A stretch of DNA of 17,467 nucleotides from a virus (lineage: Duplodnaviria; Heunggongvirae; Uroviricota; Caudoviricetes). Where the stretch lies: IMG/VR virus record IMGVR_UViG_2585427741_000008; one strand, 5' to 3'. A model generated the notes under the pieces. The model saw only the letters and a list, made by a program, of their open reading frames with translations. It ran no database searches and had not been told where the DNA came from. Below are positions 3,511 to 14,416 of this stretch, one piece after another. Each line of letters begins with the position of its first letter. Within the stretch, counting starts at the first letter, position 1. A program made the translations under genes and the position numbers.

Positions 3511-4693
3511 CGGAGGGTTTCGTGGTCATGTTCATCGGTGTGAGATAGACATCCCCACCGGGACGCGGATTCATATCTTCCAGGTCGCGGCAGTCATTGG
3601 GAGAGTAAATTCCCCAGTTAATCCCGGTGGCGTAGGCTTCAAAACGGGACTTCATATCCCCGCGCAGTAACGCCCCGGCGTTAAATTTGGCGTAATAAAC
3701 GCCCTGCTTACTTTTTCGTACCAGTCCGGTGTTGATCCGCTGCTCAATGCGGGTCAGATACGGCACCAGTGAATAGTTGATAAATCCCAGCCCCAGTTCT
3801 TCGATATTGTTGAAGGTGGCACGATCGGTGTTCTGCACCATGTGCAATGGCACACGGAACAGACGACAGATTTCTTCAAGCTGAAACTTGCGGGTTTCCA
3901 GGAACTGGCTGTCCTCGGCGTTCAGCGCCATCGACTTCCAGTCCAGCCCCATCTCAAGGATCATCGGGCGGTGAGCATTGCCAAGCCCGGTGTGACGCTC
4001 CTCAAAATCTTTCTTCAGGCGCTCATAAGCCTGATCTGACAGCGTCTGCTCTGTACGCAACACACCCGACGTCACCGCGCCATTGCTGAACAGTCTGGCC
4101 CCGTGCTCTTCGGTCGCAGCTGCCAGCGATATTGCCTCGCGGGCATAGGCGATGGGATTCAGCCCCACCAGTCCGTCCAGCGTCAGCGTACGCACATGCC
4201 AGATATCCTCCTGGCTCAGTACATCCGTGGAGCCATCCGGGAATGTGACCTGATAGATCGGCTCCCAGCTACTGTTAAGCTTCGGTACCACACAGCCGGG
4301 ATCGACGGGCAGCAGTTCAGCCACTTCGCCAAATGCTTTCACTTTGTAGGCGTAAAAGTTTCCCCGCAGGCACAGACAGGTGACCACCAGCTCCCAGAAC
4401 TCCTGCGGCGTCATATAGCCATTGGGATGCGTGGAGATCAGCTTATGCAGACGTTCGCCAGTGGCTCTCTGCTTCAGGCTGCCGTTCAGGTGATACAGGT
4501 TGCAGGGCAACATCCCGACCGACTCCGCCAGCACCCTGACGCAGGAAAAAACCGCCGTCAGTCGCATGGCCCTCTGGCTGCTGATCTGCTTTCCGGTATA
4601 GGTGTCGTATGACAGCCCGATAGCATCCGCCAGCTCTGCTGGCGTGGTCACCGGTGCGTCACTTTTTCGTTGAAATAATCCCGAAAAGAACAC
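3452..4693 (-). CDS. Portal protein, HK97 family
   Basis: 413-aa ORF immediately downstream of the terminase large subunit and a small membrane ORF. Size and position fit a portal protein. Confidence 0.85.
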   Translation of the reverse strand: MFFSGLFQRKSDAPVTTPAELADAIGLSYDTYTGKQISSQRAMRLTAVFSCVRVLAESVGMLPCNLYHLNGSLKQRATGERLHKLISTHPNGYMTPQEFWELVVTCLCLRGNFYAYKVKAFGEVAELLPVDPGCVVPKLNSSWEPIYQVTFPDGSTDVLSQEDIWHVRTLTLDGLVGLNPIAYAREAISLAAATEEHGARLFSNGAVTSGVLRTEQTLSDQAYERLKKDFEERHTGLGNAHRPMILEMGLDWKSMALNAEDSQFLETRKFQLEEICRLFRVPLHMVQNTDRATFNNIEELGLGFINYSLVPYLTRIEQRINTGLVRKSKQGVYYAKFNAGALLRGDMKSRFEAYATGINWGIYSPNDCRDLEDMNPRPGGDVYLTPMNMTTKPSDGSKAGKQKDNANADETTS

Positions 4694-7709: not shown

Positions 7710-8567
7710 GTGTTAAATCCTATCAGCTTATTTTCAGTAAAATTAACCTGCTACCACAATGATAGAGAAATTATGGTAGGAACAGGTTTTCTTTATAGCC
7801 ATGAAGATTATAGAGACCCAATCTTAATAACAAACTACCATGTCCTAACCTGTAGAGAACCCAAAAACCCAGCATCCTTAATGAACAATATAGGATCCTC
7901 ACCAAATAAAATAAAATGTCACATTTGGGCTCCGAATGGCTCGTCCTGCCATACATTTTATATCAATATTGATGAACACACGGAATGGTTAGAACATCCC
8001 TTAAGGGCTAATGGGGTGGATATTGTTGGCATTCCCATAATCTTTACTAGCGATGTAGGCTATACAACACAAAACGATATTAACAACACCGACACAATTC
8101 CACTTCACGTTGCATCAGACTTATCAATCGTGGGTTATCCCCTTGGTTTATCTGTAAATGAGCATTTACCAATTTGGAAAAATGGAGTGATTGCCAGTGA
8201 ACCAGACGTTAAAATATCCGGCCTTGACTATTTCTATATTGATGCAACAACCAAGGAAGGCATGTCTGGATCTCCTGTATTTTCTCATGAATATACTACT
8301 CAAATTATAGTTTCACCAGAAGTGCATGCTTTATATCAGCGTCGCCAGCGAGGCGAACTAGATGCTTTGCAATTTATCTCTTCAATACCATCTGAGTCAC
8401 TAAACAACACCATTCAAGTAAAAAAATTCAAATTAATTGGTATTTATTCTGGACGAGTGACAGTAGGAACATCTATGCCAGATATAGGTATAGTTTGGAA
8501 GCTTAGTCTAATTGAGGAAATGCTTTCGTCCAAAAATTTGGTCAAATCAGAATATCCACCTTACTAA
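7710..8567 (+). CDS. Trypsin-like (S1/Trypsin_2-type) serine protease with an ~85-aa C-terminal extension of unknown function; AT-rich cargo gene
   Basis: 285-aa ORF with a GTG start at 7710 preceded by AGGAGG (7700-7705). Putative triad His44 (GTGFLYS...ILITNYHVL, codon 7839-7841), Asp104 (NGVDIVGI) and Ser186 (GMSGSPVF, codon 8265-8267). About 33% GC in a sampled 60-nt stretch versus about 47% in a sampled flank. Opposite strand to all flanking phage genes. Confidence 0.7.
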   Translation: MLNPISLFSVKLTCYHNDREIMVGTGFLYSHEDYRDPILITNYHVLTCREPKNPASLMNNIGSSPNKIKCHIWAPNGSSCHTFYINIDEHTEWLEHPLRANGVDIVGIPIIFTSDVGYTTQNDINNTDTIPLHVASDLSIVGYPLGLSVNEHLPIWKNGVIASEPDVKISGLDYFYIDATTKEGMSGSPVFSHEYTTQIIVSPEVHALYQRRQRGELDALQFISSIPSESLNNTIQVKKFKLIGIYSGRVTVGTSMPDIGIVWKLSLIEEMLSSKNLVKSEYPPY

Positions 8568-9135: not shown

Positions 9136-9595
9136 TTACCACCCCACCAGCCTCTTTAAATCGGGCAATCAGGTCGCCGATTTTATGTTCATACTGACCG
9201 TAACCTGCACCTGGTAACGACGCCCAGATATTGCTGCAACGGTCGATTGCCTGACGAATATTGCCGCGGTCAATCATCGGTAAAGCGCCACGCTCTTTAA
9301 TCTGCTGCAGAGCTACAGCGTCCTGGCTTTCTGGAGAAAAATCTTTCAGGCCAAGCTGTTTACGGTAAGCATCCCACCAGCGTGAAAGAAGCTGGTAACG
9401 TCCGGCGGCTGTTGATTTGAGTTTGGGGTTTAGCGTGACAAGTTTGCGAGGGTGATCGGAGTAATCAGTGAACAGTTCGCCACCAACAATAACATCATAA
9501 CCGTGGTTACGTGTCGGTTGTTGCCCGTTATCCGTTCCTTCTGACCATGCCACCATATCAAGGAAAGCTTTACGCTGGGAATTTAGTGCCTGCAT
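9119..9595 (-). CDS. R: Endolysin, lambda R-type lytic transglycosylase
   Basis: 158 aa; the sequence (…QRKAFLDMVAWSEGTDNGQQPTRNHGYDVIVGGELFTDYSDHPRKLVTLNPKLKSTAAGRYQLLSRWWDAYRKQLGLKDF…) matches lambda R as I recall it along nearly the whole length, including the catalytic-Glu context WSEGT. Confidence 0.9.
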   Translation of the reverse strand: MQALNSQRKAFLDMVAWSEGTDNGQQPTRNHGYDVIVGGELFTDYSDHPRKLVTLNPKLKSTAAGRYQLLSRWWDAYRKQLGLKDFSPESQDAVALQQIKERGALPMIDRGNIRQAIDRCSNIWASLPGAGYGQYEHKIGDLIARFKEAGGVVNEVEL

Positions 9596-9598
9596 AAA

Positions 9599-9925
9599 TT
9601 ACTCCTTCGAGCTACCAAATTTGTTACCGATTACTCGCATTGCAGCCCCACGAATAGCATCGACACCGATCAGCCCAACGCCGCCACCAATGGCAACAGA
9701 AAGCGATTTAGGCCATCCGACATACTCAAGAGCGGATGCAAAAGTCAGCGTCAGAGCACCACAGAGCAAAATCTCGAGCGTTTTTCGTTTCCAGCCACCA
9801 CCACTGCCAAAATAGGCAATACGTAAACCAGCCATAACGATCGACATAATCACTGCGCCCAGCGGTGTGTCTCCACGCCACCAGCTCTGGACCAACTCCA
9901 GCCAAGTATTTGGGTTATGAGGCAT
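9599..9925 (-). CDS. Holin (three predicted transmembrane segments, class I-like)
   Basis: 108-aa ORF ending 3 nt before the endolysin start. Three hydrophobic stretches (LGAVIMSIVMAGLRIAYF; LEILLCGALTLTFASALEYVGW; LSVAIGGGVGLIGVDAI) and a charged C-terminus. Not recognisably lambda S. Confidence 0.65.
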   Translation of the reverse strand: MPHNPNTWLELVQSWWRGDTPLGAVIMSIVMAGLRIAYFGSGGGWKRKTLEILLCGALTLTFASALEYVGWPKSLSVAIGGGVGLIGVDAIRGAAMRVIGNKFGSSKE

Positions 9926-10077
9926 TTGTAGTTATCTCTCACCTCGCTAATACAGCAGGTGCAAATTGAGGGAACATCATGTACCGCAAATCAGAAGCGG
10001 AAACGTCAAAGAAGCCGAACCAATGGATAACTGCGGAATAGGCAAGGACCAACGAATCCCCAGCCCCAGAAACGACA

Positions 10078-10099
10078 AAACCCGCTCGACGGCGGGTTT
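10078..10099 (-). terminator. Intrinsic-terminator-like hairpin in the late leader upstream of the holin (tR-prime-like candidate)
   Basis: 8-bp stem AAACCCGC / GCGGGTTT with a 6-nt loop. On the minus transcript it is followed by UUUUGUCGUUUCU (complement of 10064-10077). Located about 150 nt upstream of the holin start. Confidence 0.4.
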
Positions 10100-10144
10100 A
10101 AGCTGTGTGGCGAAGTAACCACTCTTAACAGATTACAATGTTTT

Positions 10145-10173
10145 TTGCGTACGCGTTAGCATTTTCGTAAAAT
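10145..10173 (+). promoter_or_regulatory. Candidate sigma70 promoter for the ATPase-methyltransferase module
   Basis: TTGCGT (10145-10150), a 17-nt spacer, then TAAAAT (10168-10173), about 31 nt upstream of the ATG at 10205. No strong Shine-Dalgarno is visible before 10205. Confidence 0.35.
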
Positions 10174-10204
10174 ACATTACCTTGCAACCATTTCAGTATA
10201 AAAA

Positions 10205-11995
10205 ATGAGCACAGAATTAAAACTAAAGAAAATTATGGCATCGTCTAAAATTGAGCCATTTATTAGACATATTCGTTTTCCTTTTTTTAAAAACCTTGCA
10301 GAGGGTAGCAAGATTGATTTTGAGTATCCAATTACAGCATTAGTTGGTCAAAACGGAACCAATAAAAGTTCTGTTTTAAGAGCCCTATTCGGTTCTCCAA
10401 ACAACTATTCTCTGGGTAGCTTATGGTTTTCTACAGATGTAGATGAGATTAAAGATGGTGGTCGTTCTAGATTTATTTATGGATATTATGACAAAGCTAC
10501 TGATTCAATTGTTGAAGTAATTAAAACTCGAATCTCTAAAGAAAATGATCCTGATTACTGGGAACCATCCAGACCATTAAAATCCGACAACATGGCTCCA
10601 ATGCCTAGTACAAAAATCTCAACCAATCAACTAAGGACTAGGTGGAAAGCTATTGACAAAAATGTAATATATTTAGATTTCAGAGCAACTATCAGTGCAT
10701 TTGATAAGTTCTTTTATCACTCTGATTTTCATACATACCCTAAGAAAGATTATCTTAGAAAACGCAGTCAGATGCTAAAAGACATTATAGATAACGATCT
10801 TAAAAAATATCAACCTCATAAAGGAAAAAAAGACAAGCTATTTGTTAACACTTTATTAGAAAAAAGTAAGGTAGAGGCAATCAGCAAGATTTTAGGTCGC
10901 AAATACACAAGCATCCGCCTTATTGAACATAGCTTATTCACTAATGACAAAGCTCCCACAATTATTCTTCAATCAGAAAACTTAAAATATTCTGAAGCTT
11001 TCGCAGGCAGTGGGGAATTTGCTGTATCTATATTAGTGCATAAACTAATGGATAGCCCTGATGCATCTTTAATTCTGCTAGATGAACCTGAAGTATCACT
11101 TCACCCTTCTGCTCAATGTCAATTGATGGAATTTTTATCAGAACAAGCACTTAAAAAGAAACATCAAATTGTCATATCCACACATTCATCAACAATAGTA
11201 AAAGACTTGCCTAAAAATGCCATAAAATTATTCTGTCTGAATGATAAAATAGGAAAGGTTGATGTTCTTCAAAATGTCAGCCCAGAAGAATCTTTCTTTA
11301 TTCTTGGTGAACGCATTGATAAAAGAACCGTTATTGTAGAAGATCGGTTAGCGAAGAGGTTTGTAGAAAAGGCGCTTAAAGCGGGTGGTGAAGCATTATT
11401 AAACTCCTTCGAAGTAAAACATGTTCCTGGAGGAGCGGGAAGTATTCTTCAAACTTTGGCTGTGCCTTTATGTGTTGCCAATGTTAAAAACGTTATTTTC
11501 TTATTAGATGGTGACCAATCGAGAACTGATGATTATCCAACTTCTGATTCCATACCAGAAAATCAAAACACAAACCTTCAAAACATCATAAAAGAAATAA
11601 CCAATCAAGATATAAAATTTAGTTGTGATGGTTCTAATGGCTCATCAAATAACAATCAAAAATACAAAATGCAAAGAAATTTTATCGATTTCATCCACGA
11701 TAAAATTGCTTTTCTTCCTGTTTATACTCCTGAAGCATTTCTTATTGAGAATGTTCATGGTGATTATAAAGAATATAAAGATCAAATCCCCAAAAACATT
11801 CAAGATGCTAAAGAAATCACCAAAGAACTTTGTAAGTTAGACACAGGGTTGGAAAACGTTACCAGTGACGATATCTTTGAAACACAAATCAGAATTCTTA
11901 ATAAAATACCAAATAATCATGAAGTGTTAACAAAAACTCGAGAGTTGCTGCAAATCTTTTTAGATAATGATACTATCAGACCAAGAGTGAGGTAG
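10205..11995 (+). CDS. ABC-type (AAA_15/AAA_21-like) ATPase with C-terminal TOPRIM-like putative nuclease domain (OLD/PARIS-like architecture)
   Basis: 596-aa ORF. P-loop-like ITALVGQNGTNKSSVL (aa 43-58, nt 10346-10369), Walker B/D-loop ASLILLDEPEVSLHPSAQ (D293 E294, nt 11081-11086), and in the C-terminal half an acidic pair VIVEDR (E379) plus a DxD motif FLLDGDQ (D435-G-D437, nt 11507-11515), as expected for a TOPRIM fold. AT-rich; stop is 3 nt before the methyltransferase start. Confidence 0.6.
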   Translation: MSTELKLKKIMASSKIEPFIRHIRFPFFKNLAEGSKIDFEYPITALVGQNGTNKSSVLRALFGSPNNYSLGSLWFSTDVDEIKDGGRSRFIYGYYDKATDSIVEVIKTRISKENDPDYWEPSRPLKSDNMAPMPSTKISTNQLRTRWKAIDKNVIYLDFRATISAFDKFFYHSDFHTYPKKDYLRKRSQMLKDIIDNDLKKYQPHKGKKDKLFVNTLLEKSKVEAISKILGRKYTSIRLIEHSLFTNDKAPTIILQSENLKYSEAFAGSGEFAVSILVHKLMDSPDASLILLDEPEVSLHPSAQCQLMEFLSEQALKKKHQIVISTHSSTIVKDLPKNAIKLFCLNDKIGKVDVLQNVSPEESFFILGERIDKRTVIVEDRLAKRFVEKALKAGGEALLNSFEVKHVPGGAGSILQTLAVPLCVANVKNVIFLLDGDQSRTDDYPTSDSIPENQNTNLQNIIKEITNQDIKFSCDGSNGSSNNNQKYKMQRNFIDFIHDKIAFLPVYTPEAFLIENVHGDYKEYKDQIPKNIQDAKEITKELCKLDTGLENVTSDDIFETQIRILNKIPNNHEVLTKTRELLQIFLDNDTIRPRVR

Positions 11996-11998
11996 ATA

Positions 11999-13039
11999 AT
12001 GGCTAAAAAGATACACGTTTACGATTTCTTTTCCGGCTGCGGCGGAACCAGTGTAGGCCTAAAAGCGGTGGGAATGGAAATTATTTTCGGTTTAGATATT
12101 GATCTAGACTCCGCTAACACCTTTAAAATGAATAATCCATTTGCACATTTTATCAATGGTGATATCAAAGATACACACGTTGAGGAAATTAAGCATCTGG
12201 TTTGTGCGTCAACACAAAGCAAAGCTCTAACCCTATTTTGTGGTTGTGCTCCATGTCAACCATTCTCGAAACAAAATAAAATACGGAACGAGGATGATCC
12301 GAGAAAAGATCTGCTTACTGAGTTTGCACGGTTTGTCTCTTATTATACGCCAGACTTTGTACTGGTAGAGAATGTACCAGGAATCCAAAATGTCGATATT
12401 AACAATGGAAATTTCCAGAAATTTCTTGAGGTTTTAGCACATCATAACTACAACGTTGATTTTGGTGTGATTCCTGCGTTGTGGTTCGGGGTTCCTCAAA
12501 CACGTGAACGTTTTGTTTTACTGGCGTCAAAACACACGAATATTAAGCTTCCATCACAAACTCATGATGGATTAAAAACTCCGTATGCAACTGTCAGAGA
12601 CTGGATCGGCGGATTACCTCCTATTGCTGCCGGTGAAACTCATAAAGATGTTATGGATCATACAGCAGCCAAACTATCTGATCTAAATATTAAACGTATT
12701 AAAGCGACTCCTGAAGGAAAAGGTAGAGAATCTTGGCCTGAAGAACTTATACTAAAATGCCATAAAAAATATAAAGGGCATACTGATGTTTATGGACGGC
12801 TTTCTTGGGACAAACCAGCAAGTGGATTAACAACTAGATGTATAAGCTATTCGAATGGACGTTTCGGACATCCAGAGCAAGATAGGGCTATTTCTGTTAG
12901 AGAGGCTGCGTTATTACAGACTTTCCCATTAGACTATTCCTTCACAGGCTCTTTAGTCTCGAAAGCCAAACAGATAGGGAATGCAGTCCCTCCCAAGATG
13001 GCTGAAGCTCTTGGAAGGGCTATCATCGCATCACTTTAA
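11999..13039 (+). CDS. DNA (cytosine-5)-methyltransferase
   Basis: 346-aa ORF with the canonical m5C-MTase motif order: I FSGCGG (nt 12029-12046), IV GCAPCQPFS (PCQ at 12251-12259), VI LVENVPGI (ENV at 12367-12375), VIII QTRERFVL (12497-12511) and X IGNAVPP near the C-terminus, with a variable region between VIII and X. Confidence 0.9.
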   Translation: MAKKIHVYDFFSGCGGTSVGLKAVGMEIIFGLDIDLDSANTFKMNNPFAHFINGDIKDTHVEEIKHLVCASTQSKALTLFCGCAPCQPFSKQNKIRNEDDPRKDLLTEFARFVSYYTPDFVLVENVPGIQNVDINNGNFQKFLEVLAHHNYNVDFGVIPALWFGVPQTRERFVLLASKHTNIKLPSQTHDGLKTPYATVRDWIGGLPPIAAGETHKDVMDHTAAKLSDLNIKRIKATPEGKGRESWPEELILKCHKKYKGHTDVYGRLSWDKPASGLTTRCISYSNGRFGHPEQDRAISVREAALLQTFPLDYSFTGSLVSKAKQIGNAVPPKMAEALGRAIIASL

Positions 13040-13041
13040 AA

Positions 13042-13063
13042 GCGGAGCCCTAGAGGGCTTCGC
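13042..13063. terminator. Hairpin at the convergent junction of the methyltransferase and Q genes
   Basis: 9-bp stem GCGGAGCCC / GGGCTTCGC (one G-U wobble) with loop TAGA. It overlaps the Q stop codon. The minus transcript has UUUUAAAG after the stem; the plus strand has no U-tract. Confidence 0.4.
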
Positions 13064-13406
13064 CTAACAATAATAGAATACCTGATATAAACCCTATAGC
13101 TCCCTGAAGCTCTTTTCTAATTGCTCCATCAGAGCATTTTCTTTTCTTAGCAATGGTGCGTAATGAGATACCAATCACAAAATGAGCAATGATCAGCTCA
13201 TATTCTTCTGGTTTATACTTCCGCAGGCGGGCGACACAGCCATCAATCATGATGCCTTCATCATCATCGCACTGAATCCGGGACTTTCTGCCATGAGGTA
13301 AAAGCCCCTTGAAGCCAGCGGCTACCGGTTGCCAATCCACACCACTGTTCTCTGCCGCAGCCCACGCTCCCCAACGGTCTAATACTTCATACATATCACA
13401 CATCAA
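13050..13406 (-). CDS. Phage antitermination protein Q (small Q family, not lambda Q)
   Basis: 118-aa ORF. Pattern LDRWGAWAA...W...AAGFKGL...RIQCDDDEGIMIDGCVARL...SDG...L resembles the small enterobacterial Q-antiterminator family as I recall it. Sits last in the early/regulatory block, before the late genes. Confidence 0.65.
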   Translation of the reverse strand: MMCDMYEVLDRWGAWAAAENSGVDWQPVAAGFKGLLPHGRKSRIQCDDDEGIMIDGCVARLRKYKPEEYELIIAHFVIGISLRTIAKKRKCSDGAIRKELQGAIGFISGILLLLGEAL

Positions 13407-13420
13407 CTTTCTCCACCAAA

Positions 13421-14416
13421 TCAGGCTAGCACACCAATTGCCAACGCACGGTCGATAAAACGAAATATCAGCTCCAGCTGGGAGCCATACTTCTCTTCAA
13501 ATGCCACGGTATCCGCATGCAGCTCGTCGTGATGCTTTCTGCACAAAGGCAACACAAAGAGGTCATGCGCTTTTGTACCCATTCCCCCCTGACCGTGGCC
13601 TATCAGGTGGTGGGGATCATCAGCAGGCTTTCCACAACATGCACACGGCTGTGTCTTAACCCAGCGCGTGTACTTTTCATTAACCCAGCGGCGACGTTTT
13701 GGGCGTAACATAAAAGACTCCGGCGACTCAGGATCCACTTTCAGCGCCAGTACCTTTTTCGCCTTATCCTGGATGATGCTGGTGGCAGGAACCGAAGGCA
13801 CAAGGTCACTTTCCCGGGTAACAGACGGCACAACAGGCTTCGGTAATCTCAGTGCCTTACGGGCTGCACTTTCCGGTAAGGCATCCGCCAGATCATTACG
13901 AATCAGCCACCAGCACAGTTCCGGCATTGTCACAACGTGACTGTCATCAAAACCGAGATCCCGACGCACGACAGATAACACCCACCGGACACAGTTATCC
14001 GTTGCCATTGATTCCAGCCGTTCCGTGAACTGATCGCGCAGCTGGTTATCGCAGTGCCAGCACAGACGGATTGCGCCCGGCGCGTGTCGCATTGTGGTCA
14101 TGTTCTCGCTGTGCCAGTCGGAATGAGGCCACTGGCAGCCTTTTTCACGAAGTAACCAGCTTTCAAGACATTCCACGCCACCAGCACGACGGATCACTGC
14201 CTCATTGCGGAACACGGCCCGAACGGCAGGATCATCCGCCAGCGGTTGTGATGCCGCCGGAACGGCACCACTGGCGAAAGATGAATAACGTTCCGGCTCA
14301 GGCTCCAGCAGGACACGCCCCTGCATAAACAGGGGCATCAGCTCTGAACCTGGTCTGAACAATACGATCCCCATACGCGGGGCAATTTCAGGGGTCAGTA
14401 GTGCTCTCACGGTCAC
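13421..14416 (-). CDS. DUF968-like phage protein with C-terminal HNH/zinc-binding-like motif
   Basis: 331-aa ORF. C-terminus CACCGKPADDPHHLIGHGQGGMGTKAHDLFVLPLCRKHHDELH has Cys/His spacing resembling the HNH-like domain of YdfU-type lambdoid proteins. Position between KilA-N and Q is typical. Confidence 0.6.
   Translation of the reverse strand: MTVRALLTPEIAPRMGIVLFRPGSELMPLFMQGRVLLEPEPERYSSFASGAVPAASQPLADDPAVRAVFRNEAVIRRAGGVECLESWLLREKGCQWPHSDWHSENMTTMRHAPGAIRLCWHCDNQLRDQFTERLESMATDNCVRWVLSVVRRDLGFDDSHVVTMPELCWWLIRNDLADALPESAARKALRLPKPVVPSVTRESDLVPSVPATSIIQDKAKKVLALKVDPESPESFMLRPKRRRWVNEKYTRWVKTQPCACCGKPADDPHHLIGHGQGGMGTKAHDLFVLPLCRKHHDELHADTVAFEEKYGSQLELIFRFIDRALAIGVLA

Follow-up and report, generated by a model that had tools for sequence, protein, structure and literature searches.

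The minus strand at positions 10068-10159 of the 17,467-nt stretch of DNA analysed here (the window) is, with a probability of roughly 0.8, the Q-dependent late-gene control cassette of an SfII/SfIV-like lambdoid prophage, carrying the full switch proposed below. The features of its sequence, their conservation, the homology to a mapped transcription start, the covariation of Q clade with a palindromic box and the boundaries of the exchanged modules were observed directly; from them we infer the activity of the late promoter pR′ in this prophage, the function of the box as the Q-binding site, the dependence on Q, pausing and the efficiency of termination.

According to the proposed mechanism, RNA polymerase would start at about A10123 from a sigma-70 promoter (CTAACG, 18 bp, TAATCT), copy a 24-nt region that is invariant in all of the sequences compared and, without Q, stop at a hairpin followed by a U-tract, giving a leader RNA of ~50-56 nt. 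Stopping at this terminator, tR′, would leave holin, endolysin and the late genes beyond them unexpressed. Q, encoded 2.9 kb upstream at 13403-13050, would act in trans after induction, recognizing the box at -35 to -20 and loading onto the promoter-proximal polymerase, which would then be carried through the terminator. A divergent promoter (10145-10173) would direct transcription of the cargo in the slot between the Q stop codon and the box away from pR′, and the cargo would thus remain outside the late transcript and convergent with Q.

As judged from sequence, this is the standard lambdoid Q/pR′/tR′ switch, and the block is homologous to the studied PR′ of Sakai/933W. It departs from the standard in that Q and pR′ lie apart, the box is palindromic, the leader is very short and without the StxS part and no pause element is recognizable. 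The logic is that of the lambda Q-qut-pR′-tR′ system (6S RNA), with a constitutive promoter, promoter-proximal engagement of Q, an early terminator and then the lysis genes, although lambda Q belongs to an unrelated family (PF03589), lambda Q and pR′ are adjacent, the lambda leader measures 194 nt and its -10-like pause element is defined, at +1 to +6.

Organization of the late region

The late genes of the window, an E. coli prophage of the SfII/SfIV/SfV type, are on the minus strand, and an identical locus is present in 8 of 5426 complete E. coli genomes, C4 (CP010121) and LR-03 (AP027474) being examples of strains that carry it. From right to left, the gene order is DUF968/HNH protein, Q, a plus-strand pair, a 279-bp interval, holin, endolysin and Rz/Rz1, followed by an HNH protein, terminase and the remaining late genes. 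The features around the cassette are as follows.

13421-14416: DUF968/HNH protein
13050-13406, minus strand: antiterminator Q (PF06530, E=8.8e-44); likelier start, ATG 13403
11999-13039, plus strand: C5 DNA methyltransferase, 346 aa, cargo gene
10205-11995, plus strand: ABC/OLD-like ATP-dependent nuclease, 596 aa (AAA_15/AAA_21), cargo gene
9926-10067, minus strand: 5′ untranslated leader of the holin, in an SfII/SfIV-type lysis module
9599-9925, minus strand: holin S, first late gene (PF05106, E=6e-25)

In the canonical cassette Q is directly followed by pR′ (bioRxiv 10.1101/651190), a layout that is not found in the window: the stop codons of the methylase and of Q lie only 10 nt apart, leaving no space for a promoter directly after Q, and from the Q stop (13050) to the predicted late start (10123) there are 2926 nt holding two reverse-oriented genes. 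This gap is an architectural rather than a mechanistic difference.

Predicted promoter pR′ and late transcription start

The elements of the cassette, as read from the sequence, are the following.

10159-10154, minus strand: candidate -35 of pR′, CTAACG (weak), 18-bp spacer, placed by positional homology with Sakai/933W and DLP12
10158-10143, minus strand: clade-specific palindromic box TAACGCGTACGCAAAA, core GCGTACGC, -35 to -20
10145-10150 and 10168-10173, plus strand: predicted divergent cargo promoter TTGCGT-17-TAAAAT, reading into the island
10135-10130, minus strand: -10 hexamer of pR′, TAATCT, -12 to -7 (Sakai homologue, TATCAT)
10100-10123, minus strand: initial transcribed region AGTGGTTACTTCGCCACACAGCTT, predicted start A10123
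10068-10099, minus strand: intrinsic terminator tR′, stem-loop 10099-10078 and U-rich tail 10077-10068, ~+25 to +56

The ~90-bp block at 10068-10159 recurs in more than 100 lambdoid phage and prophage loci with a Q of the Q21/Q933W family (PF06530), its carriers including SfII, SfIV, Stx2a_WGPS2, Stx1_14744, DLP12 (as captured in phage 434B), PA-2, PhiR49_1, Stx2d_112808, Stx2a_14040, cdtI, phiP27, Klebsiella phages and more than 100 IMG/VR contigs; a single copy of AAGAGTGGTTACTTCGCCAC stands in the window where 0.00 would be expected, well beyond what chance would give. In Stx2d_112808, Stx2a_14040 and VT2-Sakai the block begins 0-15 nt past the Q stop codon, an arrangement that reads as the canonical Q-pR′ layout.

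The homologous promoter has been studied in 933W/VT2-Sakai (Sp5) and as the Sp15 PR′-tR′, the source of StxS (Sy et al. 2020, PMC7547250), with a Q of the same family at 45% identity. Promoter core, start and the first 46 transcribed nucleotides are homologous to those of the window (81% identity), including the first hairpin and U-tract, and a palindromic box of different sequence, TTTACGATCGTAAA, occupies the same position; in Sakai, however, Q stop codon and block overlap and no cargo intervenes, whereas in the window the two are split. The Sakai PR′ start was mapped by dRNA-seq, the 3′ end of tR′ was mapped by Term-seq 258 nt downstream of it and an RNase E cleavage was located in GU|AUU after +173 (PMC7547250). 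Since the published PR′ coordinate, 1,266,203, falls inside Q in NC_002695.2 and evidently belongs to another coordinate frame, the start was anchored on the +258 and +173 landmarks instead. In the VT2-Sakai record (L012) a single start agrees with both, the A of GATAAG|AGTGG at position 2960, from which the last U of the second terminator is +258 and the sole GUAUU is cut after +173. By homology with this base, late transcription in the window would start at A10123. The expectation that the late promoter and the Q site would lie in 10100-10204 is thereby narrowed to 10123-10159.

The match of pR′ to consensus is weak, at 3/6 for the -35 CTAACG and 3/6 + 3/6 for the whole promoter, and the Sakai/933W counterpart, TTTACG-16-TATCAT, is stronger. 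A consensus sigma-70 scan did not flag pR′, the activity of which is therefore predicted from homology and not from consensus. On the other hand, of 57 distinct upstream sequences 53 have TAnnnT at -12 to -7, and the motif falls in almost no other register. The hexamer TATACT, put forward by the original prediction as a weak -10-like element complementary to 10206-10211, was rejected as the late promoter: the plus strand at those positions reads TGAGCA, and TATACT is found on the minus strand at 10200-10195, in cargo-specific sequence that is absent from the relatives.

Among phages with Q proteins only 45-57% identical, the transcript begins with ~22 nucleotides, AGTGGTTACTTCGCCACACAGC, that vary hardly or not at all, a Q-independent constraint that could reflect a signal for pausing, a role of the RNA or a site for a host factor. 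In the IMG/VR set the invariance of +1 to +21 is imposed by the search pattern; the initial transcribed region is also invariant in the BLAST-derived alignment, the only set unbiased by the pattern, although BLAST likewise requires conserved words. A search of this region for a sigma-dependent -10-like pause element gave none that was convincing, the best candidate being TAC(T/A)T(C/T) at +7 to +12, which in the window is TACTTC, without the final T, and in Sakai the better TACATT.

Terminator tR′ and the predicted leader RNA

The GC-rich hairpin that had been noticed at 10078-10099 was recovered both by reading of the sequence and by a terminator scan. Its stem, AAACCCGC/GCGGGTTT, comprises 8 pairs (5 G-C) around a 6-nt loop and is followed on the minus strand by the U-rich tail TGTCGTTTCT (10077-10068); UUUUGUCGUUUCU, given originally as the sequence that follows the hairpin on the minus transcript, is the same tail counted from 10080. 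It is the best-ranked terminator-like site in 9500-13600, where the scan returned 9 sites against 3.2 expected, and no further minus-strand site was detected between tR′ and the holin start at 9925, nor any other late-strand terminator between the island/promoter block and the holin.

The placement of a terminator upstream of the holin, also part of the original prediction, is borne out by the relatives: a hairpin and U-tract stand at the same place in every one compared, within ~+24 to +60 in 59 of 59 distinct leader variants. In distant clades (loci L020, L053, L070, L076, L081 and L100) unrelated hairpins occupy this place, which argues for selection on terminator function. Folding energies compared with shuffles were not significant for either the 61-nt (z=-1.0) or the 204-nt leader (z=-0.24) and were therefore left out as support.

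Of the two terminators in Sakai, the one reported as tR′ is the second, at +258, and StxS derives from the leader there; in the window only the first terminator is present. The lysis genes begin 140 nt downstream of tR′, which is the sole barrier before them. In Sakai lysogens the 258-nt RNA ending at the second terminator accumulates without Q (PMC7547250), so that some polymerase evidently passes the homologous first hairpin (+U7) there; by analogy, termination at the window hairpin may perhaps be incomplete.

It appears rather improbable that the block is mainly a constitutive small RNA of ~50 nt with its own role in the lysogen, similar to StxS, with the hairpin serving just as its terminator rather than chiefly as a gate under the control of Q. 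The invariance of +1 to +22 across such divergent Q proteins would suit an RNA function, and the Sakai PR′ is constitutive in lysogens, its terminated product being a functional Hfq-binding sRNA (PMC7547250). The leader moreover folds into two hairpins, the first a possible 5′ hairpin in the initial transcribed region (GUGGU/GCCAC, 5 bp, +2 to +17). Yet StxS is the 3′ part of the 258-nt leader (a Northern species of ~74 nt), and this part is missing from the window, where only nt 1-46 of StxS-L align (10123-10077) and the 3′ StxS-S part has no match; no Rfam family was recognized either, a scan of 9800-10400 at permissive E-values giving chance hits only. A small RNA would in any case be compatible with antitermination, which would still be needed for lysis genes so close downstream with no other promoter or terminator.

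Pairing of the palindromic box with Q

The box TAACGCGTACGCAAAA is present in a single copy in the window. Scanning IMG/VR with the invariant transcribed motif gave 120 loci, 111 of them with an upstream same-strand PF06530 Q; the Q proteins were clustered at 80% identity and the sequence at -38 to -16 was tabulated for each cluster. In all 111 loci the core of the box agrees with the Q cluster, without a single mismatched pair. The distinct cores are GCGTACGC, GCGGTCCGC, TTTACGnnCGTAAA, TGTTATAACA, TTCGTTACGAA and TGGAATTCCA, every one of them palindromic or nearly so, distributed as follows.

Q clade of the window (n=19, plus SfII): box TAACGCGTACGCAAAA
SfIV clade and its 74%-identical Stx2d sister: core GCGGTCCGC
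DLP12/933W clade: core TTTACG(T/A)(A/T)CGTAAA
Q cluster 4: core TGTTATAACA
Q clusters 7 and 9: core TTCGTTACGAA
Q clusters 8 and 10: core TGGAATTCCA

Within a clade the box is the same whether Q and box are adjacent (gap 9-44 nt, n=28) or split (630-2926 nt, n=83). The Hamiltonella phage APSE-2 carries a class-B box identical at 22/22 nt with a Q only 61% identical to the Stx2d Q, and the putative recognition helix of Q (~residues 95-110) also differs by clade. The box is thus likely to be the Q-binding element (QBE/qut), an assignment drawn from these sequence comparisons. In APSE-2 (L135) the box, ATTAGTGCGGTCCGCAAAAAGT at 4180-4201, lies inside the 3′ end of the Q ORF and is followed by TAATAT and then by an unrelated transcribed region; its toxin cassette (cdtB) was considered and dismissed as a case of reverse cargo, being forward-oriented and downstream of the box, as with stx.

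Several points count against this assignment. The covariation of Q and box could partly reflect co-inheritance, the box is a palindrome and not a direct repeat as in phage 21, and by rough estimate it lies ~13 bp farther from the candidate pause element than the phage 21 QBE does. Phage 21 (Yin et al. 2019, bioRxiv 10.1101/651190; Shi et al. 2019, PMC6606751) has a Q of the same Pfam family, PF06530, and the window Q shows a weak but significant match (E=0.003) to this solved Q21. As in the window, the Q site of phage 21 is located between the -35 and the -10, with a promoter-proximal region and then a terminator after it. However, Q21 has 162 aa and the window Q 117 aa, and the Q21 QBE is a TGAGCA direct repeat at ~-21 and -13, in contrast to the palindrome at -35 to -20. 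The TGAGCA direct repeat is absent from 10100-10204; a lone TGAGCA occurs at 10206-10211 (plus strand), inside the start region of the ATPase.

The promoter and terminator could therefore be correctly placed and the box still not be the Q site, consisting instead of the interleaved -35 elements of pR′ and of the cargo promoter or of the operator of another dimeric regulator, with Q recognizing something else, such as the invariant transcribed region. This is held to be unlikely. The outer bases of the palindromes are indeed -35-like (TTTACG, TTGTTA, TTGCGT, TTGCGG), the right half is in register with the conserved -10 in the clade of the window, Q21, the only structurally characterized family member, binds a direct repeat (PMC6606751), and linkage can produce covariation. 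But the same palindromes are found in adjacent-type loci without a divergent cargo gene (933W/Sakai, Stx2d and APSE-2), and the cores differ sharply by clade, which is not what a -35 function would be expected to favour. That APSE-2 and E. coli phages agree at 22/22 nt despite 61% Q identity also speaks for Q recognition, as does the resemblance of -35 to -20 to the location of the QBE in lambda and 21, and the transcribed region, being the same across Q clades, cannot confer Q specificity.

Q protein and module boundaries

The window Q is 83-89% identical to the annotated antiterminator Q of Stx1a, Stx2a and SfII phages, and 94.1% identical over aa 1-101 (tblastn). Its tail, ...GILLLLGEAL, is cargo-specific; another clade-specific tail is ...CLSMLDIRLEMD. 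The C-termini of Q in the clade of the window (13050-13110) are short and hydrophobic (GILLLLGEAL, GIMCILNR, GVLRMV, GILLIIKPL). An L(E/D)MD C-terminal motif present in all other Q clades is missing from this one, which is counted against the main reading and makes the Q of this clade a putative antiterminator; SfII has the same type of tail. The annotated SfII Q (L001 3830-4141) also shows a 13-residue internal deletion (AW-------AAGF) relative to all other members of the clade.

The segment from 9926 to ~10067 is ~94-96% identical to SfII and SfIV and travels with the lysis cassette and not with the Q/pR′ module: E. coli G1/2-type loci, which have Q, island and pR′ in common with the window as far as 10077 only, lack 9926-10067. 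A unit of Q, island, pR′ and terminator is joined exactly at 10077 to another late region in four E. coli genomes, a region that is Stx-phage-like, without stx and with tRNA genes; the swap at this position indicates that the block (10077 to ~10160) belongs with Q and not with the holin. Recombination breakpoints lie directly after tR′, and late regions downstream of the terminator are common to box classes A to D, so that recombination is frequent there, yet Q has never parted from its box.

A relic block with no functional pR′, in a prophage that either is defective or transcribes its late genes by antiterminated early read-through from Q across the antisense strand of the island, is regarded as highly improbable. 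The poor match to promoter consensus and the atypical Q tail would agree with it, and a similar split Stx2a prophage was reported to have 'lacked the late promoter PR′' (PMC10562709). The block is nevertheless intact, with the key -10 positions conserved over dozens of cargo variants, and the pairing of Q with box is maintained; Q and pR′ are likewise split in entries submitted as complete phage genomes (SfII, SfIV and Stx1a/Stx2a-converting phages), and the lysis, terminase and portal genes of the window are intact.

Cargo slot and predicted divergent promoter

The interval between the Q stop codon and the box is a slot for cargo. Cargo lies between the two in 83 of the 111 loci, the slots of the split loci holding 80 distinct sequences of 593-2889 nt that fall into fewer length/ORF types, and their coding strand is opposite to Q and pR′ in nearly all, with forward ORFs in two types. 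To the left, the cargo meets the cassette at ~-37 (window ~10160), just before the -35 of pR′. At the Q end, homology at the DNA level stops near 13110 and the last ~5-18 Q codons differ with the type of cargo, which puts the cargo junction inside the Q reading frame. The original prediction of an island lying exactly between Q and its target, with neither disrupted, was therefore right about the position and wrong about Q, the C-terminal tail of which is altered; its single precise insertion gives way to a recurrent cargo slot.

The candidate island promoter at 10145-10173, also anticipated as standing back-to-back with the late promoter, is present as stated and conserved in the clade of the window. 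Its -35 sits inside the palindromic box and its predicted start, ~10180, is ~57 bp from that of pR′, so that the two promoters overlap. TAnnnT is found 17-18 bp from TTGCGT in 11 of the 13 distinguished cargo types of the clade (upstream sequences read by eye), and the divergent promoter thus looks to be part of the scaffold.

The best PADLOC matches of the nuclease are HEC-04 (E=1.9e-36) and ATPase-Toprim_I-B, and the methyltransferase matches the MTase_II model; the pair may be a restriction-like or methylation-associated defence system. A nuclease of ~72% identity occupies the same slot beside the same holin in other E. coli genomes (H159-H162). At 13040-13060 there is only a weak hairpin, AGCCC-TCTA-GGGCT, with no good plus-strand T-tract, and cargo transcripts may therefore enter Q antisense.

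DLP12 (qsr′; quuD-nmpC-essD) and PA-2 (Q-lc-lysis) show the same split, with Q, a reverse porin gene (nmpC/lc), the conserved block and the holin, but they belong to another Q clade with another box, TTTACGTACGTAAA, and carry a porin in place of the nuclease/methylase pair. Neither the annotations of these records nor the papers covered by a literature search described the block as pR′. In the 1986 PA-2 record (J02580; L008) the pR′ block, at 1730-1750, bears the label of a CRP-binding site serving the divergent lc porin gene and not that of the late promoter.

In the phi80 taiEcA 'non-contiguous operon' (PMC11364771), a reverse defence-type gene is likewise placed relative to a Q-controlled late operon; there, however, the gene is inside the late transcript and transcribed antisense to it, whereas the island of the window is upstream of the pR′ start and escapes. 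The closer positional analogue in the window is not the island but a 285-aa ORF at 7710-8567 (plus strand) with a trypsin-like peptidase domain (PF13365, E=3.8e-9), antisense within the late operon between Rz/Rz1 and the HNH/small-terminase genes. It is a second reverse-oriented cargo gene, at the position of the phi80 tai defence gene.

A broader proposal, tentative and on balance doubtful, is that phages of the Q933W clade possess a dedicated cargo bay between the stop codon of Q and its binding box. If so, a symmetric Q dimer would bind the palindrome, in contrast to Q21, which binds in tandem, and the palindrome would also hold the -35 of a built-in divergent promoter expressing any loaded cargo. 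Q binding late in lytic growth would then turn the late genes on and the defence or moron cargo off, and cargo transcription into the 3′ end of Q in the lysogen would be an anti-Q antisense brake, like lambda paQ.

Implications

For many E. coli and Shigella prophages, including SfII, SfIV, DLP12 and many Stx1/Stx2 phages, the comparison gives a position to late promoter, terminator and probable Q site. In these phages pR′ is missed by annotation because it does not lie directly after Q; a published analysis of a split Stx2a prophage concluded that pR′ was absent (PMC10562709), and its placement matters for predicting the expression of Shiga-toxin and lysis genes. The six Q clades paired with six boxes offer ready-made specificity-swap experiments for this antiterminator clade. 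The interval from Q to box is a hypervariable slot for reverse-oriented cargo, often two-gene defence-like cassettes, and a practical place to search for new phage-borne systems. DLP12 and PA-2 have displayed the split for decades, and the arrangement is widespread and under-described.
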